Shown in pieces: positions 8,243 to 28,960 of a DNA stretch of 28,960 nt. Source of the DNA: a virus. Taxonomy: Duplodnaviria > Heunggongvirae > Uroviricota > Caudoviricetes. The stretch is from IMG/VR virus record IMGVR_UViG_2693429733_000004, positions 1-28,960 of that record. One strand, 5' to 3'. The translations under genes were made by a program, and so were the position numbers. Numbering within the stretch: the first letter of the stretch is position 1; each line of letters starts with the position of its first letter. The notes beneath the pieces are model-generated. The model did no database searches, was not told where the DNA came from, and worked only from the letters and a program-made list of their open reading frames with translations.

Positions 8243-8283
8243 TCATGGCCCTTCGGGGCCATTTTCTCTCTGTGGAGGAGTTC

Positions 8284-8682: not shown

Positions 8683-8693
8683 CGGGAGGCGCT

Positions 8694-9047: not shown

Positions 9048-9058
9048 AAGGGGGATGT

Positions 9059-10029: not shown

Positions 10030-10036
10030 GGACGCT

Positions 10037-10777: not shown

Positions 10778-10792
10778 TCCGGAGAGTCAGCG

Positions 10793-11631: not shown

Positions 11632-14185
11632 ACCGGTAGGCGATCTGGTCGTTGATTTGAGTCTGGATGCGGCCAGATTTGACGAGCAGATGGCCAGAGT
11701 CAGGCGTCATTTTTCCGGTACGGAAAGTGATGCGAAAAAAACAGCGGCAGTCGTTGAACAGTCGCTGAGCCGACAGGCGCTGGCTGCACAGAAAGCGGGG
11801 ATTTCCGTCGGGCAGTATAAAGCCGCCATGCGTATGCTGCCTGCACAGTTCACCGACGTGGCCACGCAGCTTGCAGGGGGGCAGAATCCCTGGCTGATCC
11901 TGCTGCAACAGGGTGGTCAGGTTAAGGACTCCTTCGGCGGGATGATCCCCATGTTCAGGGGGCTTGCCGGCGCGATCACCCTGCCGATGGTGGGGGCCAC
12001 CTCGCTGGCGGTGGCGACCGGTGCGCTGGCGTATGCCTGGTATCAGGGCAACTCAACCCTGTCCGATTTCAACAAAACGCTGGTCCTTTCCGGTAATCAG
12101 GCGGGACTGACGGCAGATCGTATGCTGGTCCTGTCCAGAGCCGGGCAGGCGGCAGGGCTGACGTTTAACCAGACCAGCGAGTCACTCAGCGCACTGGTTA
12201 AGGCGGGGGTAAGCGGTGAGGCTCAGATTGCGTCCATCAGCCAGAGTGTGGCGCGTTTCTCCTCTGCATCCGGCGTGGAGGTGGACAAGGTCGCTGAAGC
12301 CTTCGGGAAGCTGACCACAGACCCGACGTCGGGGCTGACGGCGATGGCACGCCAGTTCCATAACGTGACGGCGGAGCAGATTGCGTATGTTGCTCAGTTG
12401 CAGCGTTCCGGCGATGAAGCCGGGGCATTGCAGGCGGCGAACGAGGCCGCAACGAAAGGGTTTGATGACCAGACCCGCCGCCTGAAAGAGAACATGGGCA
12501 CGCTGGAGACCTGGGCAGACAGGACTGCACGTGCATTCAAATCCATGTGGGATGCGGTGCTGGATATTGGTCGTCCTGATACCGCGCAGGAGATGCTGAT
12601 TAAGGCAGAGGCTGCGTTTAAGAAAGCAGACGACATCTGGAATCTGCGCAAGGATGATTATTTCGTTAACGATGAAGCACGGGCGCGTTACTGGGATGAT
12701 CGTGAAAAAAAACGCCTGGAGCGGGATGCAGCCCAAAAGAGGGTAGATCAACAGCGTCAACAGGACAAAAATGCGCAGCAGCAGAGCGATACCGAAGCGT
12801 CACGGCTGAAATATACCGAAGAGGCGCAGAAGGCTTACGAACGGCTGCAGACGCCGCTGGAGAAATATACCGCCCGTCAGGAAGAACTGAACAAGGCACT
12901 GAAAGACGGAAAAATCCTGCAGGCAGATTACAACACGCTGATGGCGGCGGCGAAAAAGGATTATGAAGCGACGCTGAAAAAGCCGAAACAGTCCGGCGTG
13001 AAGGTGTATGCGGGCGATCGTCAGGAAGACAGTGCTCATGCGGCCCTGCTGACGCTTCAGGCAGAACTCCGGACGCTGGAGAAGCATGCCGGAGCGAATG
13101 AGAAAATCAGCCAGCAGCGCCGGGATTTGTGGAAGGCAGAAAGTCAGTTCGCGGTACTGGAGGAGGCGGCACAACGTCGCCAGCTGTCCGCACAGGAGAA
13201 ATCCCTGCTGGCGCATAAAGACGAGACGCTGGAGTACAAACGCCAGCTGGCTGCACTTGGTGACAAGGTTACGTATCAGGAGCACCTGAATGCGCTGGCG
13301 CAGCAGGCGGATAAATTCGCACAGCAGCAACGGGCAAAACGGGCAGCCATTGATGCGAAAAACCGGGGGCTGACTGACCGGCAGGCAGCGCGGGAAGCCA
13401 CGGAACAGCGCCTGAAGGAACAGTATGGCGATAATCCTCTGGCGCTGAATAACGTCATGTCAGAGCAGAAAAAGACCTGGGCGGCTGAAGACCAGCTTCG
13501 CGGGAGCTGGATGGCAGGCCTGAAGTCCGGCTGGAGTGAGTGGGAAGAGAGCGCCACGGACAGTATGTCACAGGTTAAAAGTGCAGCCACGCAGACCTTT
13601 GATGGTATTGCACAGAATATGGCGGCGATGCTGACCGGCAGTGAACAGAACTGGCGCAGCTTCACCCGCTCCGTGCTGTCCATGATGACAGAAATTCTGC
13701 TTAAGCAGGCAATGGTGGGGATTGTCGGGAGTATCGGCAGCGCCATTGGCGGGGCTGTTGGTGGCGGCGCATCCGCGTCAGGTGGTACAGCCATTCAGGC
13801 CGCTGCGGCGAAATTCCATTTTGCAACCGGGGGATTTACGGGAACCGGCGGCAAATATGAGCCAGCGGGGATTGTTCACCGTGGTGAATTTGTCTTCACG
13901 AAGGAGGCAACCAGCCGGATTGGCGTGGGGAATCTCTACCGGCTGATGCGCGGCTATGCGGAAGGTGGTTATGTGGGCGGTGCCGGAAGTCCGGCGCAGA
14001 TGCGGCGGGCTGAAGGCATTAATTTTAATCAGAACAATCACGTGGTGATTCAGAACGACGGTACGAATGGTCTGCCAGGTCCACAGATGATGAAGGCCGT
14101 GTATGACATGGCCCGCAAGGGTGCCCGTGATGAAATTCAGACACAGATGCGTGATGGTGGCCTGTTCTCCGGAGGTGGACGATGA
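11624..14185 (+). CDS. H: Tape measure protein gpH (853 aa), copy A
   Basis: 853-aa ORF MAEPVGDLVVDLSLDAARFDEQMARVRRHF… ; lambda gpH length. Confidence 0.95.
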   Translation: MAEPVGDLVVDLSLDAARFDEQMARVRRHFSGTESDAKKTAAVVEQSLSRQALAAQKAGISVGQYKAAMRMLPAQFTDVATQLAGGQNPWLILLQQGGQVKDSFGGMIPMFRGLAGAITLPMVGATSLAVATGALAYAWYQGNSTLSDFNKTLVLSGNQAGLTADRMLVLSRAGQAAGLTFNQTSESLSALVKAGVSGEAQIASISQSVARFSSASGVEVDKVAEAFGKLTTDPTSGLTAMARQFHNVTAEQIAYVAQLQRSGDEAGALQAANEAATKGFDDQTRRLKENMGTLETWADRTARAFKSMWDAVLDIGRPDTAQEMLIKAEAAFKKADDIWNLRKDDYFVNDEARARYWDDREKKRLERDAAQKRVDQQRQQDKNAQQQSDTEASRLKYTEEAQKAYERLQTPLEKYTARQEELNKALKDGKILQADYNTLMAAAKKDYEATLKKPKQSGVKVYAGDRQEDSAHAALLTLQAELRTLEKHAGANEKISQQRRDLWKAESQFAVLEEAAQRRQLSAQEKSLLAHKDETLEYKRQLAALGDKVTYQEHLNALAQQADKFAQQQRAKRAAIDAKNRGLTDRQAAREATEQRLKEQYGDNPLALNNVMSEQKKTWAAEDQLRGSWMAGLKSGWSEWEESATDSMSQVKSAATQTFDGIAQNMAAMLTGSEQNWRSFTRSVLSMMTEILLKQAMVGIVGSIGSAIGGAVGGGASASGGTAIQAAAAKFHFATGGFTGTGGKYEPAGIVHRGEFVFTKEATSRIGVGNLYRLMRGYAEGGYVGGAGSPAQMRRAEGINFNQNNHVVIQNDGTNGLPGPQMMKAVYDMARKGARDEIQTQMRDGGLFSGGGR

Positions 14186-14511
14186 AAACCTTCCGCTGGA
14201 AAGTGAAACCCGGTATGGATGTGGCTTCGGCCCCTTCTGTAAGAAAGGTGCGCTTTGGTGATGGCTATTCCCAGCGAGCGCCTGCCGGGCTGAATGCCAA
14301 CCTGAAAACGTACAGCGTGACGCTTTCTGTCCCCCGTGAGGAGGCCATGGTACTGGAGTCGTTTCTGGAAGAGCACGGGGGCTGGAAAGCCTTTCTGTGG
14401 ACGCCGCCTTATGAGTGGCGGCAGATAAAGGTGACCTGCGCAAAATGGTCGTCGCGGGTCAGTATGCTGCGTGTTGAGTTCAGCGCAGAGTTTGAACAGG
14501 TGGTGAACTGA
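14182..14511 (+). CDS. M: Tail tip protein gpM (109 aa), copy A
   Basis: 109-aa ORF, ATGA overlaps with H stop and L start. Confidence 0.9.
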   Translation: MKTFRWKVKPGMDVASAPSVRKVRFGDGYSQRAPAGLNANLKTYSVTLSVPREEAMVLESFLEEHGGWKAFLWTPPYEWRQIKVTCAKWSSRVSMLRVEFSAEFEQVVN

Positions 14512-15083
14512 TGCAGGATATCCGGCAGGAAACACTGAATGAATGCACCCGTGCGGAGCAGTCGGCCAGCGTGGTGCTCTGGGAAATCGATCTGACAGAG
14601 GTCGGTGGAGAACGTTATTTTTTCTGTAATGAGCAGAACGAAAAAGGTGAGCCGGTCACCTGGCAGGGGCGACAGTATCAGCCGTATCCCATTCAGGGGA
14701 GTGGTTTTGAACTGAATGGCAAAGGCACCAGTACGCGCCCCACGCTGATGGTTTCTAACCTGTACGGTATGGTCACCGGGATGGCGGAAGATCTACAGAG
14801 TCTGGTCGGCGGAACGGTGGTCCGGCGTAAGGTTTACGCCCGTTTTCTGGATGCGGTGAACTTCGTCAACGGAAACAGTGACGCCGATCCGGAGCAGGAG
14901 GTGATCAGCCGCTGGCGCATTGAGCAGTGCAGCGAACTGAGCGCGGTGAGTGCCTCTTTTGTACTGTCCACGCCGACGGAAACAGATGGCGCTGTTTTTC
15001 CGGGACGTATCATGCTGGCCAACACCTGCACCTGGACCTATCGCGGAAAATGGCGAATTACCGTCTTATATCACTGGCGCTGA
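14511..15083 (+). pseudogene. L: Truncated gpL (first ~179 codons of a ~232-codon gene) fused to 11 unrelated codons - left side of recombination joint
   Basis: Identical in register to intact L copy (20667..21365) through …PGRIMLANTC.W.YRG, then diverges (KWRITVLYHWR*) where the intact copy continues DECGYNGPAVADEFD…. Confidence 0.8.
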
Positions 15084-15160
15084 CATCTCCGGATGACGGG
15101 GGCAGCTGTTATCTCTGGCTCAACCGTGGGCAACCACCCGCAGTTAACCGGCGACGATAA
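15048..15160 (+). pseudogene. 3' remnant of a second FII gene (last ~25 codons) - right side of the L'::FII' joint
   Basis: Reading frame ending at TAA 15158..15160 encodes …TSPDDGGSCYLWLNRGQPPAVNRRR, parallel to the FII C-terminus at 8970..9047, followed by Z copy B at the same spacing. Confidence 0.65.
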
Positions 15161-15174
15161 ACGCAGGGTGAATT

Positions 15175-15750
15175 ATGGCGATAAAAGGGCTTGATCAGGC
15201 GATTGACAATCTGAGCCGGGTTCGTAAAAACGCCATTCCGGCTGCTTCTGCAATGACCATTAACCGCGTGGCCACAACGGCGATTAATCAGTCTTCGTCA
15301 CAGGTTGCCCGGGAAACCAGGGTGAGACGGAAACTGGTAAAGGAACGGTCCAGACTGAAACGGGCGACGGTCAGAAATCCGAATGCCAGAATTATCGTTA
15401 ACCGCGGTGATCTCCCTGTGATTAAGCTGGGGATCAGAATGCTGGGGCGTCGTCCGAACAGCATACTCAAAGCCGGTCAGCATCGTTATCAGCGGGCATT
15501 TATCCAGCGATTAAATAATGGGCGCTGGCATGTTATGCAACGTCTTCCCCAGGCCAGATATGAGGAGGGCAATGACGACAAGGGAAGGAAAAAGCGTAAT
15601 CGCCTTCCCATTCAGGTGGTGAAAATCCCGATGGCGGCCCCACTGAAACAGGCATTTGATGAGAATGTTGACCGTATCCGGCGTGAACGCCTGCCTAAAG
15701 AACTGGCATACGCGCTGAAACAACAACTGAGGATTGCGATAAAACGATGA
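15175..15750 (+). CDS. Z: Tail completion protein gpZ paralog (191 aa), tail module copy B
   Basis: MAIKGLDQAIDNLSRVRKNAIPAASAMTINRVATTAINQSSSQVARE… ; ~70% aa identity to copy A by eye. Confidence 0.85.
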   Translation: MAIKGLDQAIDNLSRVRKNAIPAASAMTINRVATTAINQSSSQVARETRVRRKLVKERSRLKRATVRNPNARIIVNRGDLPVIKLGIRMLGRRPNSILKAGQHRYQRAFIQRLNNGRWHVMQRLPQARYEEGNDDKGRKKRNRLPIQVVKIPMAAPLKQAFDENVDRIRRERLPKELAYALKQQLRIAIKR

Positions 15751-16142
15751 AACACACTGACATTCGTGCCGCAGTGCTGGATGCACTCGAGCAGCATGAA
15801 CACGGGGCGACGCTGTTTGATGGTCGCCCCGTTGTTTTTGACGAAGAGGATTTTCCTGCGATCGCGGTTTATCTGACGGATGCAGAGTATACCGGTGAAG
15901 AGCTGGATGCAGATACCTGGCGGGCCACACTGCATATTGAGGTGTTTTTACCGGCACAGGTACCTGATTCGGAGCTCGATCAGTGGATGGAAAGCCGGAT
16001 TTATCCGGCGATGACTGCGATCCCTGCACTGGCAGGACTGATTACCACGATGGTTACGCAGGGCTATGAGTATCGTCGTGATGACGATATGGCGTTATGG
16101 AGCTCTGCGGATCTGACTTATTCCATTACATACGAGATGTGA
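15747..16142 (+). CDS. U: Tail terminator gpU paralog (131 aa), copy B
   Basis: [44 protein letters not shown]…. Confidence 0.85.
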
Positions 16143-16149
16143 GGACGAT

Positions 16150-16902
16150 ATGGCAACACCAAATCCCCTGGAGCCGGTAAAAGGTGCCGGTACCACTCTG
16201 TGGGTTTACAACGGCAAGGCTGATGCTTATGCAAACCCGTTGTCAGACGATGACTGGCAGCGACTGGCTAAGGTGAAGGATCTGACGCCGGGCGAGATGA
16301 CGGCTGAATCCTATGATGATAACTACCTGGATGATGAAGACGCGGACTGGAGCGCGACCGGGCAGGGGCAGAAATCTGCAGGTGATACCAGTTTTACGCT
16401 GGCCTGGAAACCGGGAGAGGAAGGCCAGAAAGGGCTTATAGGCTGGTTTGAAAGCGGCGATGTCCGGGCCTATAAAATCCGTTTTCCGAATGGCACGGTG
16501 GATGTGTTTCGTGGCTGGGTCAGCAGTATCGGTAAGGCCGTGACGGCGAAAGAAGTGATCACCCGCACGGTGAAAGTCACTAACGTGGGTAAACCTTCTG
16601 TAGCGGAAGAACGCAGCAAAATTACGCCGGTCAGTGCGATTAAGGTGACGCCGACATCCGGTACGGTGGCAAAAGGGAAAACAACCACCCTGACGGTTTC
16701 TTTTGAGCCGGAAAGTGCAACCGACAAGACGTTCAGAGCGGTTTCCGCCGATCCGTCGAAAGCCACCATTAGTGTGAAAGATATGACAATTACGGTAAAC
16801 GGCGTGGCGACAGGTAAGGTGCAGATCCCTGTGGTGAGCGGAAATGGTCAGTTCGCCGCAGTGGCTGAAGTCACCGTTACTGAAGCGGGCGCTGCAGGGT
16901 AA
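16150..16902 (+). CDS. V: Major tail tube protein gpV paralog (250 aa) with Ig-like C-terminal domain, copy B
   Basis: [49 protein letters not shown]…. Confidence 0.85.
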
Positions 16903-16915
16903 ACGGAGGTAATAC

Positions 16916-17347
16916 ATGTTTCTGAAAACAGAACAATTTGAATATAACGGTGTGTCTGTCACGCTTTCCGAATTGTCTGCGCTGCAGCGTATCGAGCATC
17001 TTGCCCTCCTGAAACGGCGTGCAGAACAGGCAGAATCCAGCGGCAACCTGCAGGTAAGCGTGGAAGATCTCGTCAGAACCGGCGCGTTTCTGGTGGCGAT
17101 GTCCCTGTGGCATAACCATCCACAGAAAACGCAGTCACCGTCAATGAATGAGGCCGTGATGAAGATAGAGCAGGAAGTGCTCACCACCTGGCCTGCCGAT
17201 GCCATTGCCCGGGCGGAAGACGTGGTGTTGTGCCTGTCCGGGATGATCGAAGCTGTTCGTCCGGATACTGATATTACTGAAGTGGCGAAAAATAACACGC
17301 TGACTGATGATGATTTTTCTGCGGGAAAGTCTTCGACGGCGAGCTGA
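16916..17347 (+). CDS. G: Tail assembly chaperone gpG paralog (143 aa), copy B
   Basis: MFLKTEQFEYNGVSVTLSELSALQRIEHL… ; ends …SAGKSSTAS. Confidence 0.85.
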   Translation: MFLKTEQFEYNGVSVTLSELSALQRIEHLALLKRRAEQAESSGNLQVSVEDLVRTGAFLVAMSLWHNHPQKTQSPSMNEAVMKIEQEVLTTWPADAIARAEDVVLCLSGMIEAVRPDTDITEVAKNNTLTDDDFSAGKSSTAS

Positions 17348-17787
17348 ACTTTGCCCTCAGACTGGCGCGTGAGATGGGGAGACCCGACTGGCGCGCCATG
17401 CTTGCCGGGATGACATCCACCGAATATGCCGACTGGCACCGTTTTTACCGCACGCATTATTTTCAGGATACCCAGCTGGATATGCATTTTTCCGGGCTGA
17501 CGTACGCTGTACTCAGCCTGTTTTTTTGCGATCCGGATATGCATCCCTCTGATTTCAGTCTGCTTGTCCCCCGGCATGAGGAAGAGCAGGTGGAGAGGCC
17601 GGATGAGGACAAAATGCTGATGCAGAAAGCGGCAGGACTTGCCGGAGGCGTCCGGTTCGGTGGGGACGGAGGGCGCGATATTTTATCGTCTGCGGATGTG
17701 GCGGATGTCATGGTGGATGATGCCGCATTAATGATGGCTTCAGCGGGGATTCCGGGAGGTGTGAGATATGTCCCAGCCGGTTGGTGA
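16916..17787 (+). CDS. T: GT fusion chaperone (via -1 frameshift), copy B
   Basis: T-frame ORF to 17787 overlapping H copy B start; same arrangement as copy A. Confidence 0.75.
17323..17329 (+). promoter_or_regulatory. -1 frameshift slippery heptamer G GGA AAG, copy B
   Basis: GGGAAAG in phase with the G copy B frame; -1 frame open to 17787. Confidence 0.75.
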
Positions 17788-20341
17788 TCTTGTTATTGAC
17801 CTGAGTCTGGATGCTGTCCGTTTCGATGAGCAGATGAGCCGGGTAAGGCGTCATTTTTCAGGTCTGGATACCGACGCCAGAAAAACCGCCAGTGCTGTTG
17901 AACAGGGCCTGAGCCGCCAGGCGCTGGCTGCACAAAAAGCCGGGATTTCCGTCGGGCAGTATAAAGCGGCCATGCGAACCCTGCCCGCACAGTTTACGGA
18001 TATCGCCACGCAGCTTGCCGGTGGTCAGAATCCCTGGCTGATCCTGCTGCAACAGGGCGGTCAGGTTAAGGACTCCTTCGGCGGGATGATCCCCATGTTC
18101 AGGGGGCTTGCCGATGCGATCACCCTGCCGATGGTCGGGGTCACCTCGCTGGCGGTGGCGACAGGTGCACTGGTGTACGCCTGGTACCAGGGAGATTCCA
18201 CGCTTTCAGCGTTTAATAAAACCCTGGTTCTTTCCGGTAATCAGTCCGGACTGACTGCCGATCGTATGCTGACTCTCTCAAGAGCCGGGCAGGCAGCAGG
18301 GCTGACGTTTAACCAGGCGAGAGAGTCACTGGCAGCCCTGGTGAATGCCGGTGTGCGTGGTGGTGAACAGTTTGATGCCATCAACCAGAGTGTCGCGCGT
18401 TTTGCGTCTGCATCCGGTGTGGAGGTGGATAAAGTCGCTGAAGCCTTCGGGAAGCTGACCACTGACCCGACGTCGGGACTGATGGCGATGGCGCGCCAGT
18501 TCCGTAACGTGACGGCAGAGCAGATTGCGTATGTTGCACAGCTGCAGCGTTCCGGAGACGAGGCCGGGGCATTGCAGGCGGCGAACGATATCGCCACGAA
18601 AGGCTTTGATGAGCAGACCCGTCGCCTGAAAGAAAACATGGGAACACTGGAGACCTGGGCGGATAAAACAGGGAAGGCATTCAAATCGATGTGGGATGCC
18701 ATTCTGGATATCGGTCGTCCGGAATCCTCAGCGGATATGCTCGCCAGTGCGCAGAAGGCATTTGATGAGGCGGATAAAAAATGGCAGTGGTACCAGAGTC
18801 GGAGCCAGCGCCGCGGTAAAACCTCCTCTTTCCGGGCCAACCTTCAGGGCGCATGGGATGACCGGGAAAATGCCCGTCTGGGTCTGGCAGCGGCAACGCT
18901 GCAGTCGGATATGGAAAAAGCCGGTGAACTGGCGGCAAGGGACAGGGCTGAGCGTGAGTCGTCACAGCTGAAGTATACCGGAGAGGCGCAGAAGGCGTAT
19001 GAGCGCCTGCTGACGCCACTGGAGAAATATACCGCCCGGCAGGAAGAGCTGAATAAGGCCCTGAAAGACGGGAAAATCCTGCAGGCGGATTACAACACGC
19101 TGATGGCGTCGGCAAAAAAGGATTATGAGTCGACGCAGAAAAAGCCGTCCGGTGTGAAGGTGTCTGCCGGTGAGCGCCAGGAAGACCAGGCGCATGCAGC
19201 CCTGCTGGCGCTTGAAACTGAGCTCAGGACGCTGGAGAAGCACAGCGGTGCGAATGAAAAAATCAGCCAGCAGCGCCGTGATTTATGGAAAGCGGAAAAT
19301 CAGTATGTGGTCCTGAAAGAGGCCGCCACGAAACGGCAGTTATCTGAGCAGGAAAAATCCCTGCTGGCCCATGAGAAAGAAACGCTGGAGTACAAACGCC
19401 AGCTGGCTGAGCTGGGCGACAAGATTGAACACCAGAAACGGCTGAATGAGCTGGCACAGCAGGCGGCGCGGTTTGAACAGCAGCAGAGCGCGAAGCAGGC
19501 GGCAATCAGCGCAAAAGCCCGCGGACTCACCGACCGTCAGGCGCAGCGGGAGTCGGAAGAGCAGCGCCTTCGTGAGGTGTACGGTGATAATCCGGCTGCG
19601 CTGGCGAAGGCCACATCTGCACTGAAGAACACCTGGTCTGCGGAGGAGCAGCTTCGTGGAAGCTGGATGGCCGGGATGAAGTCCGGCTGGGGCGAGTGGG
19701 CGGAAAGTGCGACGGACAGTTTTTCGCAGGTTAAAAACGCGGCCACGCAGACCTTTGACGGTATTGCACAGAATATGGCAGCGATGCTGATCGGCAGCGA
19801 ACAGAACTGGCGTGGTTTCACCCGTTCTGTGCTGTCCATGCTGACAGAGATTTTTCTGAAGCAGGCGATGGTGGGGATAGTCGGGAGTATCGGCAGCGCC
19901 ATTGGCGGTGCTTTCGGTGGTGGTGCGTCTGCCTCCACGGGGACGGCCATTCAGGCTGCGGCGGCGAACTTCCATTTCGCGACCGGGGGATTTACGGGGA
20001 CGGGGGGTAAATATGAACCTGCGGGGATTGTTCATCGCGGGGAGTTTGTCTTCACGAAGGAGGCGACCAGCCGGATTGGTGTCGGCAATCTGTACCGCCT
20101 GATGCGGGGCTATGCGGAAGGTGGTTATGTCGGCGGTGCCGGAAGTCCGGCGCAGATGCGGCGGGCGGAAGGCATTAATTTTAATCAGAACAATCACGTG
20201 GTGATTCAGAACGACGGCCCCAACGGGCGGGCAGGGCCGCAGCTGATGAAAGCGGTGTATGAGATGGCCCGCAAGGGGGCACAGGATGAACTCCGGCTGC
20301 AGTTGCGTGATGGCGGTATGTTATCAGGGAGCGGTGGATGA
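17768..20341 (+). CDS. H: Tape measure protein gpH paralog (857 aa), copy B
   Basis: MSQPVGDLVIDLSLDAVRFDEQMSRVRRHF… ; collinear with copy A but diverged in central coiled-coil region. Confidence 0.9.
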   Translation: MSQPVGDLVIDLSLDAVRFDEQMSRVRRHFSGLDTDARKTASAVEQGLSRQALAAQKAGISVGQYKAAMRTLPAQFTDIATQLAGGQNPWLILLQQGGQVKDSFGGMIPMFRGLADAITLPMVGVTSLAVATGALVYAWYQGDSTLSAFNKTLVLSGNQSGLTADRMLTLSRAGQAAGLTFNQARESLAALVNAGVRGGEQFDAINQSVARFASASGVEVDKVAEAFGKLTTDPTSGLMAMARQFRNVTAEQIAYVAQLQRSGDEAGALQAANDIATKGFDEQTRRLKENMGTLETWADKTGKAFKSMWDAILDIGRPESSADMLASAQKAFDEADKKWQWYQSRSQRRGKTSSFRANLQGAWDDRENARLGLAAATLQSDMEKAGELAARDRAERESSQLKYTGEAQKAYERLLTPLEKYTARQEELNKALKDGKILQADYNTLMASAKKDYESTQKKPSGVKVSAGERQEDQAHAALLALETELRTLEKHSGANEKISQQRRDLWKAENQYVVLKEAATKRQLSEQEKSLLAHEKETLEYKRQLAELGDKIEHQKRLNELAQQAARFEQQQSAKQAAISAKARGLTDRQAQRESEEQRLREVYGDNPAALAKATSALKNTWSAEEQLRGSWMAGMKSGWGEWAESATDSFSQVKNAATQTFDGIAQNMAAMLIGSEQNWRGFTRSVLSMLTEIFLKQAMVGIVGSIGSAIGGAFGGGASASTGTAIQAAAANFHFATGGFTGTGGKYEPAGIVHRGEFVFTKEATSRIGVGNLYRLMRGYAEGGYVGGAGSPAQMRRAEGINFNQNNHVVIQNDGPNGRAGPQLMKAVYEMARKGAQDELRLQLRDGGMLSGSGG

Positions 20342-20667
20342 AAACCTTTCGCTGGAAAGTGAAGCCGGATATGGAGGTGAACTCGCAGCCATCGGTGCGT
20401 GAAGTGCGTTTTGGTGACGGGTACTCACAGCGTATGGCGGCAGGGCTGAATGCTGACCTGAAAACATACAGGGTGACGCTTTCCGTGACCCGGGAGGAGG
20501 CCCGGCATCTGGAAGCGTTCCTGGCAGAGCACGGTGGCTGGAAGGCATTTTTGTGGAAGCCACCCTATGCATACCGGCAGATAAAGGTGACCTGTGCCGG
20601 GTGGTCTGCGCGGGTCGGGATGTTGCGCGTTGAGTTCAGCGCGGAGTTTAAGCAGGTGGTGAACTGA
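20338..20667 (+). CDS. M: Tail tip protein gpM paralog (109 aa), copy B
   Basis: MKTFRWKVKPDMEVNSQPSVREVRFGDGYSQ…. Confidence 0.9.
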   Translation: MKTFRWKVKPDMEVNSQPSVREVRFGDGYSQRMAAGLNADLKTYRVTLSVTREEARHLEAFLAEHGGWKAFLWKPPYAYRQIKVTCAGWSARVGMLRVEFSAEFKQVVN

Positions 20668-21365
20668 TGCAGGATATTCGCGAAGAAAGTCTGAACGAGT
20701 CGGTTAAGTCAGAGCAGTCACCGCGGGTGGTACTCTGGGAAATCGACCTGACGGTACAGGGTGGTGAGCGGTATTTTTTCTGTAATGAGCTGAATGAAAA
20801 AGGGGAGCCGGTCACCTGGCAGGGGCGTAAGTATGAGGCATACCCGATTGACGGCAGCGGCTTTGAGATGAACGGCCGGGGCAGCAGTGCCAGACCGTCG
20901 CTGACGGTGTCCAATCTGTTCGGTCTGGTCACCGGGATGGCGGAAGACCTGCAGAGTCTGGTGGGGGCCACGGTGGTCCGCCGCCGGGTGTATGCCCGTT
21001 TTCTGGATGCGGTGAATTTCGTTGCGGGCAATCCGGAGGCGGACCCGGAGCAGGAGCTGAGTGACCGCTGGGTGGTGGAGCAGATGTCGCAGCTGACAGC
21101 CATGACGGCCTCGTTTGTGCTGGCTACACCGACCGAGACGGACGGGGCGCTGTTTCCCGGTCGCATCATGCTGGCGAACACCTGTATGTGGGATTACCGG
21201 GGAGATGAATGCGGGTATAACGGTCCTGCGGTGGCGGATGAGTTCGACAACCCCACCACGGATATCCGTAAGGACAGATGCAGCAAGTGCATGCGCGGGT
21301 GTGAACTGCGCAGGAATGTCGGCAATTTTGGCGGTTTCCTTTCCATTAATAAACTTTCGCAGTAA
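20667..21365 (+). CDS. L: Tail tip protein gpL, full length (232 aa; Cys-rich C-terminus), copy B
   Basis: 232-aa ORF ending …CMWDYRGDECGYNGPAVADEFDNPTTDIRKDRCSKCMRGCELRRNVGNFGGFLSINKLSQ. Confidence 0.9.
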   Translation: MQDIREESLNESVKSEQSPRVVLWEIDLTVQGGERYFFCNELNEKGEPVTWQGRKYEAYPIDGSGFEMNGRGSSARPSLTVSNLFGLVTGMAEDLQSLVGATVVRRRVYARFLDAVNFVAGNPEADPEQELSDRWVVEQMSQLTAMTASFVLATPTETDGALFPGRIMLANTCMWDYRGDECGYNGPAVADEFDNPTTDIRKDRCSKCMRGCELRRNVGNFGGFLSINKLSQ

Positions 21366-21375
21366 ATCCCGGTTT

Positions 21376-22119
21376 ATGACACAGACTGAATCAGCGATTC
21401 TGGCACATGCCCGGCGGTGTGCGCCTGCGGAGTCGTGCGGCTTCGTGATAAGCACGCCGGAGGGGGAGCGGTATATCCCTTGTGTGAATATTTCCGCAGA
21501 GCCGGAGGCGTATTTTCGTATCGCACCGGAAGACTGGCTGCGGGCAGAGATGCAGGGGGAGATTGTGGCACTGGTCCACAGTCATCCCGGTGGGCTGCCC
21601 TGGCTGAGCGAGGCTGACCGGCGGTTGCAGATAAAAAGCGCACTGCCCTGGTGGTTGGTCTGCCGGGGTGACATTCACAAATTCCGCTGTGTGCCACATC
21701 TGACAGGACGGCGCTTTGAGCACGGGGTGACGGACTGTTACACGCTGTTCCGGGATGCTTATCATCTGGCGGGGACTGAAATGCCGGATTTTCATCGCGA
21801 GGATGACTGGTGGCGCAACGGTCAGAACCTTTACCTGGATAATATGGCGGTCACCGGCTTTTACCGGGTGCCCCTGTCCTCTGCACAGGCGGGCGATATT
21901 CTGCTGTGCTGCTTTGGTGCTTCGGTACCGAACCATGCCGCCATTTACTGCGGCAACGGTGAGCTGCTTCACCATCTGCCTGAACAACTGAGTAAACGGG
22001 AGAGGTATTCCGAAAAATGGCAACGACGAACGCATTCAGTCTGGCGTCACCGCCACTGGCACGCATCTGCCTTCACGGGGATTTACAACGATTTGGCCGC
22101 CGCCTCAGCCTGTATGTGA
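21376..22119 (+). CDS. K: Tail tip assembly protein gpK (247-codon ORF; MPN/JAMM domain plus NlpC/P60 domain)
   Basis: ATG 21376 ten nt after L stop; JAMM motif HSHPGGLPWLSEAD (HxHx7Sx2D) and catalytic-type Cys in GVTDCYTLF; overlaps I by ~100 nt as in lambda; the classical 199-aa lambda start corresponds to an Ile codon here. Confidence 0.85.
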   Translation: MTQTESAILAHARRCAPAESCGFVISTPEGERYIPCVNISAEPEAYFRIAPEDWLRAEMQGEIVALVHSHPGGLPWLSEADRRLQIKSALPWWLVCRGDIHKFRCVPHLTGRRFEHGVTDCYTLFRDAYHLAGTEMPDFHREDDWWRNGQNLYLDNMAVTGFYRVPLSSAQAGDILLCCFGASVPNHAAIYCGNGELLHHLPEQLSKRERYSEKWQRRTHSVWRHRHWHASAFTGIYNDLAAASACM

Positions 22120-22697
22120 ACACGGCAGCGGAAGCCATTCGCGCCCTGTCGATGCAGATGCCGGGCTTTCGCCGTCAGATGAACGAAGGCTGGTACCAGA
22201 TACGTATTGCCGGTTATGACACGGCACCGGAGGCGGTGTACGCCCGTCTTCACGAACAGCTGGGTGAGGGAACGGTCATCCACATTGTGCCGCGACTGGC
22301 CGGGGCCGGAAAGGGTGGACTGCAGATTGTGCTGGGGGCGGCAGCCATCGTGGGCTCTTTCTTCACTGCCGGGGCATCAATGGCGTTATGGGGTTCAGCC
22401 CTGGCAGCCGGTGGTTTTTCTGCCACCACGATGCTGTTTTCACTTGGAGCCAGCATGATTCTGGGCGGTGTGGCCCAGATGCTGGCCCCGAAGGCAAAAA
22501 CACCGGATTACCGCGCAACGGATAACGGCAGACAGAACACGTACTTTTCCTCACTGGATAACATGATTGCCCAGGGGAACCCGATGCCGGTGCCTTACGG
22601 GGAAATGCTGGTTGGCTCCCGCCGTATATCCCAGGACATCAGCACCCGTGATGAAGGCGGGGGCGGAAAGGTCGTGGTTATCGGGCGGCAGGGGTAA
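22017..22697 (+). CDS. I: Tail tip assembly protein gpI (226 aa)
   Basis: MATTNAFSLASPPLARICLHGDLQRFGRRLSLYVNTAAEAIRAL… ; Gly/Ala-rich hydrophobic central stretch. Confidence 0.85.
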   Translation: MATTNAFSLASPPLARICLHGDLQRFGRRLSLYVNTAAEAIRALSMQMPGFRRQMNEGWYQIRIAGYDTAPEAVYARLHEQLGEGTVIHIVPRLAGAGKGGLQIVLGAAAIVGSFFTAGASMALWGSALAAGGFSATTMLFSLGASMILGGVAQMLAPKAKTPDYRATDNGRQNTYFSSLDNMIAQGNPMPVPYGEMLVGSRRISQDISTRDEGGGGKVVVIGRQG

Positions 22698-22743
22698 AAA
22701 GAATAAAAAAATCCCGCAGTGATCGCGGACAGGAACTGCGGGA
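22695..22743 (-). terminator. Rho-independent terminator on - strand (8-bp stem TCCCGCAG/CTGCGGGA then U-tract)
   Basis: - strand reads tcccgcagttcctgtccgcgatcactgcggga then TTTTTTTATTCTTTTT; on + strand the A-tract precedes the stem, so it is orientation-specific for the - strand. Confidence 0.5.
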
Positions 22744-22801
22744 GAGTTACGAAGATTAAGTGTAAGGAATTATTCTTATATCACGACAAAAAAATTAACG
22801 C
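22700..22801 (-). ncRNA. Candidate ~100-nt small RNA in the I-J intergenic insert (promoter to terminator, no ORF)
   Basis: Bounded by predicted sigma70 promoter (22808..22835) and terminator (22695..22743) on - strand; no ATG in the transcript; AU-rich body; not matched to any known sRNA. Confidence 0.3.
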
Positions 22802-22807
22802 AGAGAA

Positions 22808-22835
22808 ATTATACGCGCCACAGTCAGTTTGTGAA
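22808..22835 (-). promoter_or_regulatory. Predicted sigma70 promoter on - strand: -35 TTCACA, 16-bp spacer, -10 TATAAT
   Basis: - strand sequence ttcaca-aactgactgtggcgcg-tataat-ttctctG; perfect -10 hexamer, 5/6 match at -35. Confidence 0.4.
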
Positions 22836-22895
22836 AATGTGAAGATATTCAGAATTTTTATGCCATTACCGGTTTTAACCAACAGGATTATCGGT

Positions 22896-22943
22896 GGGCA
22901 TGAAAGAAAACCCCGGTATCTGCTGATACCGGGGTTTCTCTTT
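22896..22943. terminator. Strong hairpin (13-bp perfect stem AAACCCCGGTATC/GATACCGGGGTTT, 4-nt loop) flanked by T-rich runs on both strands; likely bidirectional terminator
   Basis: Stem 22908..22920 / 22925..22937; followed by TTTCTCTTT on + strand and TTTTCTTTC on - strand. Confidence 0.5.
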
Positions 22944-23040
22944 AGCATGGCAGAAATGTGTTTCATGCTTTTCGGGCGAAGGATATCCGACTTCTGTACG
23001 GAATGGCAAGTGGCGGTTAATTTATTCAGGGGAAGGCTGT

Positions 23041-26000
23041 ATGGGAAAAGGTGGCGGTAAGGCACACACGCCTCGTGAGGCGAAGGATAATCTCAAATCC
23101 ACGCAGATGATGAGCGTGATTGATGCGATTGGTGAGGGACCGATAGAAGGTCCGGTGAAGGGACTGCAGAGTATCCTGGTGAACAAAACCCCGCTGACGG
23201 ACACGGACGGTAATCCCGTGATACACGGTGTGACGGCGGTCTGACGCGCCGGGGAGCAGGAGCAGACACCACCGGAAGGCTTTGAGTCCTCCGGTGCTGA
23301 AACCGGACTGGGCGTGGAAGTGACGAAGGCAAAACCGGTGACGCGCACCATTACGTCCGCGAACATTGACCGCCTGCGGGTTACCTTCGGGGTGCAGTCA
23401 CTGGTGCAGACCACGTCAAAGGGTGACCGAAACCCGACATCCGTCCGCCTGCTGATTCAGTTACAGCGTAACGGTAACTGGGTGACAGAAAAGGATGTCA
23501 CCATTAACGGCAAGACCACCTCGCAGTTTCTGGCGTCGGTGATTCTGGATAATCTGCCTCCCCGTCCTTTTAACATCCGGATGGTCCGGGAGACAGCGGA
23601 CAGCACCACGGACCAGCTGCAGAATAAGACGCTGTGGTCGTCATACACCGAAATCATCGATGTGAAACAGTGCTACCCGAACACGGCCATTGTGGGGCTG
23701 CAGGTGGATGCGGAGCAGTTCGGCGGCCAGCAGATGACGGTGAACTACCATATCCGCGGTCGCATCATCCAGGTGCCGTCAAACTATGACCCGGAAAAAC
23801 GCACGTACAGTGGTATCTGGGACGGCAGCCTGAAACCGGCATACAGCAACAATCCGGCCTGGTGTCTGTGGGACATGCTGACTCACCCGCGCTACGGCAT
23901 GGGAAAACGTCTGGGGGCGGCGGATGTGGACAAGTGGGCGCTGTATGCCATCGGGCAGTACTGCGACCAGACGGTCCCGGATGGTTTCGGGGAGACCGAG
24001 CCGCGGATGACCTTCAATGCGTACCTGGCACAACAGCGTAAGGCATGGGACGTGCTCAGTGATTTCTGCTCGGCGATGCGCTGTATGCCGGTATGGAACG
24101 GCCAGACGCTGACGTTTGTTCAGGACCGCCCGTCGGATGTGGTGTGGCCGTACACCAACAGCGATGTGGTGGTGGATGATAACGGCGTGGGTTTCCGCTA
24201 CAGCTTCAGTGCCCTGAAGGACCGGCACACGGCGGTGGAGGTGAATTATACCGACCCGCAGAACGGCTGGCAGACCTCCACGGAACTGGTGGAAGACCCG
24301 GAAGCCATACTGCGCTACGGACGCAACCTGCTGAAGATGGACGCGTTCGGCTGTACCAGCCGCGGTCAGGCCCACCGTGCCGGACTGTGGGTGATAAAGA
24401 CCGAACTGCTGGAAACGCAGACGGTGGATTTCACGCTCGGGTCTCAGGGGCTGCGGCACACACCCGGTGACATCATTGAAATCTGTGATAACGACTATGC
24501 CGGGACCCTGACCGGCGGACGTGTCCTGTCCATTGATGCTGCCACCCGCACTCTGACGCTGGACCGTGAAGTGACACTTCCGGAGACCGGTGCCGCCACG
24601 GTGAACCTGATTAACGGCAGCGGTAAGCCGGTGAGTGTGGACATCACCGAACACCCCGCGCCGGACCGGATACAGGTCAGTACCCTGCCTGATGGTGTGG
24701 AGACATACGGGGTGTGGGGACTCTCCCTGCCGTCACTGCGCCGTCGCCTGTTCCGCTGTGTCTCCGTCCGGGAAAACACGGACGGCACCTTTGCCATCAC
24801 GGCGGTGCAGCACGTACTGGAAAAAGAAGCCATCGTGGATAACGGTGCCCGCTTTGAGCCGCAGTCAGGTTCCCTGAACAGCGTCATCCCACCGGCAGTG
24901 CAGCACCTGACGGCCAGTATCTGGCGCAGGCGAAATGGGACACGCCGCGGGTGGTGAAGGGTGTGCGCTTCAGTCTGCGCCTGACCAGTGGTAAGGGAAC
25001 GGATGCCAGACTGGTGACCACCGCCATCACCGCAGACACGGAGCACCGTTTCAGCGGCCTGCCGCTCGGGGAATACACCCTGACGGTGCGGGCGATAAAC
25101 AGCTATGGCCAGCAGGGTGAACCTGCCACCACCACCTTCCGGATTGCCGCACCGGCAGCACCGTCGCGGATTGAGCTGACGCCGGGCTATTTTCAGATAA
25201 CCGCAACGCCGCATCTTGCCGTTTATGACCCGACGGTACAGTTTGAGTTCTGGTTCTCGGAAAAGCGGATTGCGGATATCAGGCAGGTTGAAACCAGCGC
25301 CCGCTATCTTGGCACGGCGCTGTACTGGATAGCCGCCAGTATCAATATCAAACCGGGCCATGATTATTATTTTTACGTTCGCAGTGTGAACACCGTTGGC
25401 AAATCGGCATTCGTGGAGGCTGTCGGTCGGGCGAGCGATGATGCGGAAGGTTACCTGGATTTTTTCAAAGGAGAGATAGGGAAAACACATCTGGCTCAGG
25501 AGCTGTGGACGCAGATTGATAACGGTCAGCTTGCGCCTGACCTGGCTGAAATCAGGACGTCCATTACGGATGTCAGCAATGAAATCACGCAGACTGTCAA
25601 TAAGAAACTGAAAGACCAGAGTGCGGCAATCCAGCAGATACAGAAGGTTCAGGTTGATACAAATAATAATCTGAACAGCATGTGGGCTGTGAAGCTGCAA
25701 CAGATGAAGGACGGACGCCTTTATATTGCGGGTATCGGTGCCGGTATTGAGAATACGCCAGCAGGAATGCAGAGTCAGGTGCTGCTGGCGGCAGACAGGA
25801 TTGCGATGATTAATCCTGCGAATGGCAACACAAAGCCGATGTTTGTTGGTCAGGGCGATCAGATATTCATGAACGACGTGTTCCTGAAACGCCTGACGGC
25901 TCCCACCATTACCAGCGGCGGTAATCCTCCGGCATTTTCCCTGACACCGGACGGAAAACTGACCGCTAAAAATGCAGATATCAGTGGCAGTGTGAATGCG

Positions 26001-26492
26001 AACGCCGGGACGCTCAACAATGTCACAATTAATGAGAACTGTCAGATTAAGGGGAAACTGTCAGCCAACCAGATTGAAGGCGATATAGTCAAAACAGTGG
26101 GTAAGGCTTTTCCGCGGGACTCCCGGGCACCGGAGCGGTGGCCATCAGGGACCATTACCGTCAGGATTTATGACGATCAGCCTTTTGACAGGCAAATTGT
26201 TATTCCGGCGGTGGCATTCAGCGGCGCTAAACATGAGCGGGAGAATAACGATATTTATTCGTCATGCCGCCTGATAGTACGGAAAAACGGTGCTGAAATT
26301 TATAACCGTACCGCGCTGGATAATACGCTGATTTACAGTGGTGTTATTGATATGCCAGCTGGTCGCGGCCACATGACGCTGGAGTTTTCGGTGTCAGCAT
26401 GGCTGGTGAATAACTGGTATCCCACAGCAAGTATCAGCGATTTGCTGGTTGTGGTGATGAAGAAAGCCACCGCAGGCATCAGTATCAGCTGA
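23041..26492 (+). pseudogene. J: Tail fibre / host specificity protein gpJ, disrupted (in-frame TGA at 23242..23244; frameshift near 24915..24920)
   Basis: N-terminus MGKGGGKAHTPREAKDNLKSTQMMSVIDAIGEGPIEGP… then TGA, same frame continues RAGEQEQTPPEGFESSG… to 24957; C-terminal ~520 codons in another frame (opens 24858, ends 26492); total span ~1150 codons, the size of an intact J. Confidence 0.8.
25141..26050 (+). repeat. Direct repeat copy 1 (~0.9 kb, ~95-97% identical by eye to 27891..28800) inside J copy B
   Basis: Long identical runs e.g. gattgagctgacgccgggctattttcagataaccgc… and …gatcagatattcatgaacgacgtgttcctgaaacgcctgacgg… present at both loci. Confidence 0.85.
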
Positions 26493-26510
26493 ATTTTATA
26501 ACCCATATAC

Positions 26511-26536
26511 GGGCGCCAGAAATGGCGCCTTTTTTA
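26511..26536 (+). terminator. Rho-independent terminator downstream of J (GGCGCC stem, 6-nt loop, TTTTTTA)
   Basis: gggcgcc-agaaat-ggcgcc followed by tttttta directly after the J stop. Confidence 0.6.
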
Positions 26537-26559
26537 TTGCAGAAAAGCGAGAGGTAATT

Positions 26560-28960
26560 ATGCGTAAAGTTTGTGCAGCCATTTTGTCCGCAGCCATCTG
26601 TCTGTCCGTATCCGGTGCAGGCATGGGGAAACGTCTTGGTGCGGCAGATGTGGATAAATGGGCGCTGTATGTCATCGGCCAGTACTGTGACCAGTCGGTG
26701 CCGGACGGCTTTGGCAGCACGGAGCCGCGCATCACCTGTAATGCCTGGCTGACCACACAGCGCAAGGCGTGGGATGTGCTCAGTGATTTCTGCTCGGCGA
26801 TGCGCTGTATGCCGGTATGGAACGGGCAGACGCTGACGTTCGTGCAGGACCGACAGTCGGATAAGGTGTGGGCCTATAACCGCAGTAATGTGGTGATGCC
26901 GGATGATGGCGCGCCGTTCCGCTACAGTTTCAGCGCCCTGAAAGACCGCCATAATGCCGTTGAGGTGAACTGGATTGACCCGGATAACGGCTGGGAGACG
27001 GCGACAGAGCTTGTGGAGGATACGCAGGCCATTGCCCGTTACGGTCGTAACGTCACGAAAATGGATGCCTTTGGCTGTACCAGCCGGGGGCAGGCACACC
27101 GCGCCGGGCTGTGGCTGATTAAAACGGAACTGCTGGAGACGCAGACCGTGGATTTCAGCGTGGGTGCTGAAGGGCTTCGTCATGTACCGGGCGATGTCAT
27201 TGAAATCTGCGATGATGACTATGCCGGTATCCGCACCGGCGGGCGCGTGCTGGCGGTGAACAGCCAGACCCGGACGCTGACGCTCGACCGTGAAATCACG
27301 CTGCCATCCTCCGGCACCACGCTGATAAGCCTGGTTGACGGGCAGGGGAATCCGGTCAGCGTGGAGGTCCAGTCCGTCACCGACGGCGTGAAGGTAAAAG
27401 TGAGCCGTGTTCCTGACGGTGTTGCTGAATACAGCGTGTGGGGGCTGAAGCTGCCGACGCTGCGCCAGCGCCTGTTCCGCTGCGTGAGTATCCGTGAGAA
27501 CGACGACGGCACGTATGCCATCACCGCCGTGCAGCATGTGCCGGAAAAAGAAGCCATCGTGGATAACGGGGCGCACTTTGACGGCGACCAGAGCGGCACG
27601 GTGAATGGTGTCACGCCGCCAGCGGTGCAGCACCTGACTGCCGAAGTCACCGCAGACAGCGGGGAATATCAGGTGCTGGCGCGCTGGGACACGCCGAAGG
27701 TGGTGAAGGGCGTGAGCTTCCTGCTCCGTCTGACCGTAACAGCGGATGACGGCAGTGAGCGGCTGGTCAGCACGGCCCGGACGACGGAAACCACTTACCG
27801 CTTCACACAACTGGCGCTGGGGAACTACAGGCTGACAGTCCGGGCAGTAAATGCGTGGGGGCAGCAGGGCGATCCGGCGTCGGTATCGTTCCGGATTGCC
27901 GCACCGGCAGCGCTGTCGCGGATTGAGCTGACGCCGGGCTATTTTCAGATAACCGCCACGCCGCATCTTGCGGTTTATGATCCGACGGTACAGTTTGAGT
28001 TCTGGTTCTCGGAAAAGCGGATTGCGGATATCAGGCAGGTTGAAACCACAGCACGCTATCTTGGCACGGCGCTGTACTGGATAGCCGCCAGTATCAATAT
28101 CAAACCGGGCCATGATTATTACTTTTATATCCGCAGTGTGAACACCGTTGGCAAATCGGCATTCGTGGAGGCTGTTGGTCAGCCGAGTGATGATGCATCC
28201 GGTTATCTGGATTTTTTCAAAGGCGAGATAGGGAAAACCCATCTGGCTCAGGAGCTGTGGACGCAGATTGATAACGGTCAGCTTGCGCCTGACCTGGCTG
28301 AAATCAGGACGTCCATTACGGATGTCAGCAATGAAATCACGCAGACTGTCAATAAGAAACTGAAAGACCAGAGTGCGGCAATCCAGCAGATACAGAAGGT
28401 TCAGGTTGATACAAATAATAACCTGAACAGCATGTGGGCTGTGAAGCTGCAGCAGATGCAGGACGGACGCCTTTATATCGCGGGTATTGGTGCCGGTATT
28501 GAGAACACCCCTGACGGCATGCAGAGTCAGGTGCTGCTGGCGGCGGACAGGATTGCGATGGTTAATCCTGCGAATGGCAACACAAAACCGATGTTTGTTG
28601 GTCAGGGCGATCAGATATTCATGAACGACGTGTTCCTGAAACGCCTGACGGCCCCCACCATTACCAGCGGTGGAAATCCATCGGCATTTTCCCTGACTCC
28701 GGACGGAAAGCTGACCGCTAAAAATGCGGATATCAGTGGCAGTGTGAATGCGAACGCCGGGACGCTCAACAATGTCACGGTAAATGAAAACTGTACGATT
28801 AAGGGCATGCTGGAGGCGACTCAGGTCAGAGGTGACTTCGTTAAAGCTGTATCCAAATCATTTCCGAAACAGGCTGGTACGTGGGGTAACACGGAAACAC
28901 CAAACGGGACGGTTACAGTCACCATAAGCGATGATCATAACTTTGACCGCCAGATTATTA
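26560..28960 (+). CDS. Chimeric ORF: lom 5' end (first ~20 codons, signal peptide) fused in frame to gpJ from about codon 290 onward; partial, runs off window end
   Basis: GAGAGG SD then ATG 26560; [20 protein letters not shown] (Lom-type signal peptide) immediately followed by [32 protein letters not shown]… (internal J sequence, parallel to 23896 onward in J copy B); frame open to position 28960; not in ORF track because no stop in window. Confidence 0.75.
27891..28800 (+). repeat. Direct repeat copy 2 (pairs with 25141..26050) inside the lom'::J' ORF
   Basis: See copy 1; the flanking J sequence on either side is much more diverged (~80% or less). Confidence 0.85.

Follow-up and report, generated by a model that had tools for sequence, protein, structure and literature searches.

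The window analysed here, a stretch of 28,960 nt, carries two copies of the phage tail gene J, termed B and C, that share a near-identical block of ~0.9 kb between strongly diverged flanks. Taken together, the comparisons indicate that this block is probably the product of an exchange of J modules in the phage population, and that the adjacency of the two copies is most likely an artefact of assembly. The window represents the complete contig CXDM01000046.1 of the short-read draft assembly GCA_001253895.1, whose sequence is continuous (0 Ns) and whose host genome is probably that of Shigella sonnei. Copies B and C are most likely the J alleles of two lambdoid prophages, with B derived from a degraded prophage (Y) and C from a largely intact, lambda-like prophage (X). 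J is the tail-tip attachment protein; its N-terminal part forms the tip hub and is followed by Ig-like domains and a fibre shaft, and its C-terminal domain binds the receptor. The features of the window are listed in Table 1.

Table 1. Features of the window, with positions in nt from its first letter.
Feature	Position	Strand	Basis
Prophage X, left part, lambda-like: nu1 to first 536 nt of tail gene L	1292..15046	+	ORF layout, Pfam families
Joint 1: unmatched A (15047), then terminal 38 nt of an IS end (15048-15085)	15047..15085	+	
Prophage Y fragment, degraded, lambdoid: FII' Z U V G T H M L K I, J pseudogene, first 59 nt of lom	15086..26618	+	
J copy B, prophage Y, pseudogene	23041..26492	+	
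Near-identical block, copy B	25141..26050	+	Identity, domains, dS
Receptor-binding end of copy B, Ig_GpJ_C domain	26051..26492	+	
First 59 nt of lom, signal-peptide region	26560..26618	+	Identical to intact lom of sister genomes
Joint 2: single A, neither lom (G) nor X-prophage J (T)	26619..26619	+	
J copy C, prophage X: nt ~856-3196 (codons ~286-1065) of an intact 1165-aa J	26620..28960	+	
Near-identical block, copy C	27893..28802	+	Identity
Three-site patch of copy-B type in copy C	28347..28383	+	Comparison with sister X and Y J copies

Alignment of the upstream parts of the two copies (23896-24915 vs 26620-27664) yielded 71.8% identity with 25 gap columns, lower than the ~80% estimated in the original prediction, and the stretch of copy B directly before the block (24916-25140) was 62.7% identical to copy C. 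The block itself aligned over 910 nt without gaps (offset 2752), with 51 differences (94.4% identity); its existence had thus been predicted correctly, whereas the values given for it (95-97%, at 27891-28800 in copy C) had to be adjusted. After the block, identity dropped to 52.6% (26051-26200 vs 28803-28958). Since copy C is cut by the contig end at 28960, ~53 codons beyond the block are visible in the window; the strong difference predicted for the last ~150 codons was verified with the full-length J gene of the sister L027, to which the receptor-binding end of copy B was 50.1% identical. In a two-breakpoint likelihood scan, the block limits came out at 25138-26023, with identities of 94.9% within and 68.4% beyond them, and comparing the block with the individual flanks by Fisher tests returned p values of 1e-42, 7e-32 and 8e-37. 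The longest run identical between B and C comprised 182 nt (25488-25669, corresponding to 28240-28421). A near-identical block of ~0.9 kb between diverged flanks was therefore borne out with slightly corrected numbers, and the properly aligned copies were far from uniform in identity (94.4% in the block vs ~50-72% in the flanks).

Synonymous divergence (dS) between B and C amounted to 0.19 in the block (0.07 in its centre) and ~1.0 upstream, a ~5-fold drop, was saturated downstream, and shifted abruptly at the block borders (breakpoints 25138 and 26023). A dS of 0.19 in the block vs ~1.0 upstream points to recombination, not protein constraint, as the cause of the similarity. The block codes for the second Ig-like domain, a linker and the tail-tip fibre domain (~aa 707 to ~1001-1010 of the 1157-aa J), and its edges match the boundaries of Pfam domains, which were located at residues 609-712 (Ig_J), 714-816 (Ig_J_second), 870-998 (Phage_Tail_Tip) and 1027-1157 (Ig_GpJ_C). 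The solved lambda gpJ constructs begin at residue 713. Chi octamers were sought at the block edges, with 0 occurrences anywhere in the window.

The J alleles of two unrelated E. coli genomes displayed the same profile as B and C, with block identities of 91-99%, which argues for a population-level mosaicism of lambdoid J genes and not for an exchange specific to B and C. In a panel of 12 alleles, five J segments gave five different, mutually incompatible groupings, and very different block types were joined to the same receptor-binding end. The best block matches of copy B were alleles in other genomes; none of the complete E. coli genomes exceeded 97.9% identity to its block segment, suggesting that copy B is itself a patchwork, and its receptor-binding end belongs to an allele type common to the VT1-Sakai, PhiR5_1 and PPompW phages. 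Two sites at which B and C differed jointly from two E. coli reference alleles were considered as private variants and discarded, since both were also found in the unrelated E. coli Ecol_448. Divergence-tolerant homologous recombination has been described as the origin of mosaics among lambdoid phages and defective prophages (PMC3945230). That lambdoid J genes are mosaics formed by module swapping is already known, and the pair B/C is a clean, quantified example of it. The two processes originally proposed for this pattern, modular exchange or gene conversion, fared differently: modular exchange is supported by dS, domain edges and the allele panel, exchange specific to the two copies is not, and the three-site patch is the single hint of conversion between B and C.

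In the scenario favoured here, the 0.9-kb block (second Ig-like domain and fibre shaft) would have passed between the lambdoid phages and prophages of the Escherichia/Shigella population by homologous recombination, far more recently than did its flanks, and the mechanism may have been phage or host homologous recombination that tolerates divergence. As the same block type was found with differing upstream domains and receptor-binding ends in other phages, the block may act as a shared patch of homology for swapping receptor-binding ends.

Copy B is a pseudogene with an interrupted reading frame. It contains a TGA codon at 23242-23244 and, relative to a 98%-identical intact relative, a frameshifting deletion of 22 bp after position 24914 that is flanked by the direct repeat CTGACGG. 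The intact relative contains all six J-specific Pfam domains above the cut-offs, and copy B lies after K and I and before lom, as is the case for lambda-type J genes. The reading frame of copy C is open, lacks the first ~285 and the last ~100 codons in the contig, and encodes Phage-tail_3, Ig_J, Ig_J_second, Phage_Tail_Tip and the start of Ig_GpJ_C. Copy C showed 9 differences from the sister L027 over 2341 nt and 98% identity to the J gene of E. coli 377323_2f. In sister genomes, it occupies the tail-operon position after K and I, whereas in the window it is found downstream of the lom fragment. The match to solved lambda gpJ (8iyk_J) had an E value of 0 and a score of 1810 bits.

The two parts of the window have separate counterparts in other genomes. 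The left part of prophage X was 94-96% identical to a prophage of E. coli 377323_2f, and positions 18951-26618 were 99.9% identical to the sister contig L016. The 67-, 547- and 513-aa fragments of copy B, followed by an intact 199-aa lom, were present in 10/10 places shown, S. sonnei 53G among them (the 513-aa fragment is listed in 124 collection blocks). The tape-measure protein of prophage X is listed in 482 collection blocks; in five of the seven places shown, the exact protein was followed by intact L-K-I-J genes (J 1164-1165 aa), with a split L gene in one of the other two and a truncated J in the other. Both prophages were present in CP032523.1, ~540 kb apart, and in the sister genomes, finished ones among them, the full-length counterpart of copy C was located in a prophage other than that of copy B. 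At the Y locus of sister genomes, an IS abuts FII' on its upstream side, and the neighbouring transposase carries rve and Mu-transposase-C domains. The suggestion that the block is a ready substrate for recombination between B and C presumes their adjacency, which the sister genomes examined do not share: there, the J genes lie in separate prophages and lom is intact.

Both joints are blunt, with one unmatched A each. The L gene of the window is identical to that of sister genomes through ...CGCGG at 15046; A15047 has no counterpart in the L gene of sister X or at the sister Y locus. From 15048 on, no difference separates the window from the sister Y locus, in which the IS extends further upstream. 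The surroundings of one E. coli match had suggested an IS66-family origin for the 38-nt filler at joint 1, an assignment that was dropped; given the rve and Mu-transposase-C domains of the transposase at the sister locus, the filler is referred to as an IS end, without a family. Joint 2 is situated in a patch of chance similarity (ATCCG...GCATGGG) with the 7-nt match GCATGGG, and the lom' frame runs in frame into J' across it. No match to joint 1 was obtained in 5,426 complete E. coli genomes or GTDB representatives, and its fusion protein occurred in one contig alone, that of the window. Likewise, joint 2 (lom'::J') had no match in the same 5,426 complete E. coli genomes, GTDB species representatives or IMG/VR, and a genuine duplication of adjacent J genes was thus absent, as judged by its joint, from the independent assemblies and finished genomes searched.

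On this circumstantial evidence, the adjacency of B and C (lom'::J') and the L'/IS/FII' joint are most likely false joins introduced by short-read scaffolding or gap closing. The accession series suggests that GCA_001253895.1 was generated with the Sanger pipeline. Its authors call this pipeline (Velvet, SSPACE and GapFiller), with which 299 S. sonnei assemblies were made, greedy and prone to false joins; each test genome came out with 4-10 misassemblies (PMC5320598). The part of X that the contig lacks (3' L, K, I and 5' J) is ~80% identical to the Y segment, and the joints lie at non-homologous positions, so that a simple collapse of X-Y repeats does not explain where the contig breaks; a near-identical Y repeat as the cause of the breaks was rejected on the basis of this ~80% identity. 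As a counterpoint to a false join, a real microhomology-assisted event could also give an in-frame lom'::J' fusion near GCATGGG. The genomes of S. sonnei contain many IS elements and rearrangements, and a private rearrangement is possible.

Within the block, copy C carries T, A and C at positions 28347, 28363 and 28383, which are bases of the copy-B/Y type: the same sites read C/G/T in 6/6 sister X copies of J and T/A/C in 4/4 sister Y copies. At its widest, the patch could span 28240-28421. Most simply, the 182-nt identical run with its three sites is a collapsed assembly bubble, which in a short-read assembly would mimic gene conversion at these sites; the patch may, alternatively, reflect a genuine short Y-to-X gene conversion.

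Of the other explanations for the block, purifying selection alone, by which its protein would be more constrained than the flanks with no recombination involved, fits the low dN/dS of the block (0.12) and the role of the shaft and Ig domains as structural parts of the tip. It was rejected on dS and is scarcely credible, because upstream dS exceeds that of the block ~5-fold despite an equally low dN/dS (0.11) in the upstream hub segment, and because the same receptor-binding end carries very different block types in the panel. An ongoing gene conversion between the two resident prophage copies, keeping the entire 0.9-kb block alike by concerted evolution, is very improbable as well. The co-residence of both prophages in the sister genomes examined, the 182-nt identical run and the three-site patch would be in line with it, but J alleles of unrelated E. 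coli that are not co-resident are just as similar in the block. Moreover, the block of copy B is 94.2% identical to the sister X copy, essentially the same value as to copy C, 51 differences remain, and the closest matches of copy B lie elsewhere, with alleles clustering by type regardless of genome.

The contig may also be correct as it stands, which is considered unlikely. An 11.6-kb piece of Y (IS end, FII' to lom') would then have replaced 2.4 kb of X (3' L, K, I and 5' J) via two illegitimate joins; the outcome, equally unlikely, would be an in-frame fusion of the Lom signal peptide to J and two J copies 2.7 kb apart, followed by a Y-to-X conversion of 37-182 nt in the block. The continuous sequence without Ns, the match of both the left and right parts of X to one prophage type, the in-frame position of joint 2 beside a chance 7-nt match and the decay of copy B, already a pseudogene, agree with such an event, and the three-site patch is exactly what a conversion from copy B would leave. 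However, the assembly is a short-read draft, neither joint was recovered from any other sequence searched, with the joint-1 protein confined to one contig, and the places read among the 482 blocks with the X tape-measure protein and the 124 with the Y J fragment represent unrearranged loci. The single unmatched A at each joint, together with the start of one joint 38 nt into a multicopy IS end, further resembles abutted contig ends. False joining of J genes from two prophages, with a block shaped by population-level exchange, remains the preferred reading.

Among known systems, lambda gpJ (PDB 8IYK, 8IYL, 8K35, 8XCG, 8XCI, 8XCJ) has the same gene position, after I and before lom, and the same Pfam series (FNIII-A_GpJ, Phage-tail_3, Ig_J, Ig_J_second, Phage_Tail_Tip, Ig_GpJ_C). 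At the DNA level, lambda J and the upstream part of copy C share ~93-95% identity, but lambda J differs in sequence over the second half of the block, has another receptor-binding end, and, in contrast to it, copy B is a pseudogene and copy C incomplete in the window. The mosaicism described by De Paepe et al. 2014 (PMC3945230) is alike in that a recently shared segment is bounded by diverged sequence, links a functional-looking and a defective prophage gene, and reassorts among temperate phages; the case in the window is known from sequence alone. The VT1-Sakai J gene of E. coli O157:H7 (AP000400, 'truncated protein by a mutation') is likewise a frameshift-split J of a resident prophage with the receptor-binding-end type of copy B, although the inactivating lesions differ, those of copy B being a TGA stop and a 22-bp slippage deletion. 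The false joins known for SSPACE/GapFiller (Page et al. 2016, PMC5320598) resemble the joints of the window in the blunt abutment of sequences that are far apart in finished sister genomes, with one side beginning some tens of nt within a multicopy IS and a single unmatched base per joint.

With regard to data quality, the tandem tail modules and the gene fusion of the draft contig vanish upon comparison with sister genomes, some of them finished, and predictions of recombination or deletion that build on the adjacency of the copies should not be trusted without reads. There is a small chance that the contig faithfully depicts a single Shigella sonnei isolate, with an 11.6-kb piece of a decaying prophage in the tail operon of an intact one, a Lom-signal-peptide::J fusion, J repeats 2.7 kb apart and a 37-182-nt conversion; if so, it would capture an exchange between prophages at a host-range gene in the act. 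For the lambdoid phages, the comparison presents J genes as sets of exchangeable modules, in which the shaft region provides shared homology beside a variable receptor-binding end.

The J gene (tail-tip attachment protein) of the degraded prophage Y (copy B) was aligned with the lom'::J' copy assigned to the lambda-like prophage X (copy C). Identity was 71.8% over 23896-24915 and 62.7% over 24916-25140, reached 94.4% across an ungapped block of 910 nt and was 52.6% in the visible part 3' of the block. A likelihood scan placed the block limits at 25138-26023, with a contrast to each flank at a p of 1e-31 or lower; identity thus did not become uniform on alignment, and the predicted pattern of a near-identical block with diverged flanks is correct. 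The original prediction was slightly optimistic in its figures (~80% where 71.8% was measured, 95-97% where 94.4% was measured) and set the second block copy at an offset of 2750 nt, measured here as 2752. The strong divergence claimed for the receptor-binding end holds for the full J of a sister (related Shigella) genome, whose receptor-binding end is about 50% identical to that of copy B; within the window, copy C is cut by the contig end, and most of its receptor-binding end falls outside.

Pfam domains in J comprise Ig_J (aa 609-712), Ig_J_second (714-816), Phage_Tail_Tip (870-998) and the receptor-binding domain (1027-1157). The block spans about aa 707-1001/1010 and therefore represents the second Ig-like domain plus the fibre shaft, its edges coinciding with domain boundaries. 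Structures of lambda gpJ have been solved, some with constructs beginning at residue 713.

The window is the complete 28,960-bp contig CXDM01000046.1 of draft assembly GCA_001253895.1; the neighbouring accession prefixes CXBN, CXBR and CXBV are draft S. sonnei assemblies of the Holt 2012 collection. The ORF list and self-comparison of the window revealed a lambda-type late operon from nu1 through tail gene L, after which the tail genes, beginning with the last part of FII and reaching J, are present again at ~78% identity, followed by a third stretch similar to J. The tail genes are in tandem because prophages X and Y are juxtaposed in the contig. Both tail modules carry, at the end of T/start of H, a 66-nt unit occurring twice (111 nt apart, ~62% identity), which suggests that a short peptide motif was duplicated internally. 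Compared with two sister genomes, gene C of prophage X (head protease/scaffold) has a 19-bp deletion (CAGCCGGACGCGGGCGCTG, ~5793) between CAGCCG repeats, which breaks the 439-aa gene into ORFs of 97/142 aa and 336 aa; genuine decay or a fault in the assembly may account for this deletion. E. coli relatives share the ~340-nt I-J spacer of prophage Y, which prophage X lacks; the annotation of phage ASU11 places a small hypothetical ORF in it.

Copy B is a pseudogene, interrupted by a TGA codon (23242-23244) and by the loss of 22 bp after 24914, between CTGACGG repeats; an E. coli prophage carries an intact 1157-aa J with 98% identity to it. Over 18951-26618 (7.7 kb), prophage Y differs from a sister contig (L016) by seven single bases, one of them inside the block (25455), where sister Y copies are also polymorphic. 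Copy C begins at J codon ~286, preceded in frame by the first 59 nt of lom and one unmatched base; 20 codons of the Lom signal peptide are hence in frame with J, and the frame is open to the contig end. If this joint were real, the fusion would encode a secreted J fragment.

Coordinates of features in the contig
Feature	Position	Content	Basis
Prophage X	1292-15046, plus J copy C	nu1 to first 536 nt of L	
Doubled tail genes	8973-15046; 15086-21365	end of FII, Z, U, V, G, T, H, M, L; ~75-79% identity	
66-nt repeats	11460-11636; 17604-17780	one pair per tail module	
Joint 1	15047	...CGCGG, A, last 38 nt of IS end, FII'; blunt	base-level alignment
IS end	15048-15085	terminal 38 nt of multicopy insertion sequence, between truncated L and FII'	
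Prophage Y	15086-26618	FII' to J pseudogene and lom'	
I-J spacer	22698-23040	prophage Y	
Palindrome	22903-22943	42 nt, imperfect, inside I-J spacer	
J copy B	23041-26492	prophage Y	
Block	25141-26050; 27893-28802	copies B and C	alignment
lom'::J' frame	26560-28960	includes copy C (26620-28960)	
Joint 2	26619	...GGTGC, A, GGCATGGGG...; blunt	base-level alignment
Three-site patch	28347, 28363, 28383	T, A, C in copy C	
X-specific markers	28239, 28422	flank the patch	

In the assembly collection, 124 blocks contain the exact 513-aa copy B fragment, among them HE616528.1 (Shigella sonnei 53G; PMC5447701). Each of the 10 places shown has the same set of three J fragments, with an intact 199-aa lom and side tail fibre genes downstream. 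For the first tail module, 482 blocks contain the identical tape-measure protein; of the seven places shown, five continue with intact L, K and I and a J of 1164-1165 aa, with L split in one of the others and J truncated in the remaining one. Copy C shows 9 differences in 2,341 nt to the J of a sister X prophage. Both prophages lie ~540 kb apart in the same orientation in the finished genome CP032523.1, and relative to sister genomes the contig carries 11.57 kb of Y in place of 2.36 kb of X (3' L, K, I, 5' J). At the position of the IS end, sister genomes have the full IS beside a transposase that carries rve and Mu-transposase-C domains; the head genes of prophage Y were therefore lost by IS-associated truncation.

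The adjacency of copies B and C is probably a false join, since the sister loci are separate, the joints are blunt with an unmatched A and unique, and the pipeline presumed from neighbouring accessions is prone to such errors. The single A at either joint matches neither partner sequence, a protein across joint 1 occurs in this contig alone, and searches for both joints in complete E. coli genomes, GTDB representatives and IMG/VR found neither. The Sanger pipeline behind 299 S. sonnei assemblies depends on SSPACE and GapFiller, which are greedy and liable to false joins according to its authors, and produced 4-10 misassemblies per test genome (PMC5320598). Against a false join, the joints sit at non-homologous positions, the X segment absent from the contig shares just ~80% identity with its Y counterpart, and joint 2 is in frame within a patch of chance similarity. 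True adjacency with real joints is less favoured, and finished sister genomes contradict this structure.

Inside a 182-nt identical run, copy C carries at three sites the bases of sister Y copies (T/A/C, 4/4) instead of those of sister X copies (C/G/T, 6/6), with the flanking X-specific markers kept. This patch reflects either gene conversion over 37-182 nt in the isolate, with B as donor and C as recipient, or a bubble of three SNPs that the assembler collapsed, the latter being favoured because of the other signs of assembly trouble. The proposed conversion between B and C thus gains one hint but, like the proposed nearby recombination substrate, depends on the contig structure at odds with the finished genomes.

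Between B and C, dS (Nei-Gojobori) was 0.19 in the block and 0.07 at its centre, 1.0-1.1 upstream and saturated downstream, with dN/dS equally low (~0.11) in the block and the upstream hub segment. The common ancestor of the block is therefore more recent than that of its flanks. Stronger protein constraint as the cause of the similarity is ruled out by the dS drop at equal dN/dS. The block similarity is a signature of recombination. The mosaic pattern is not special to this pair: in E. coli, the relatives nearest to B and C, from unrelated genomes, show the same profile with a block 91-99% identical.

Twelve J alleles (including lambda, ASU11, VT1-Sakai, PhiR5_1, PPompW and three Stx phages) were grouped differently by the hub, the first Ig domain, each block half and the receptor-binding end. 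PhiR5_1 and Stx2a_2409 have the receptor-binding type of copy B, but a different type of block; lambda J falls with B and C over the first block half only. The best match to the block segment of copy B among 5,426 complete E. coli genomes reached 97.9%, and this block is a patchwork whose variants are found in different alleles. Modular exchange in J was thus rightly predicted, given the dS drop and the segment-dependent groupings, and is well known; it operates at the population level. Lambdoid mosaicism arises via homologous recombination tolerant of divergence, defective prophages included (De Paepe et al., PMC3945230), and the J pattern described here is this already known mosaicism.
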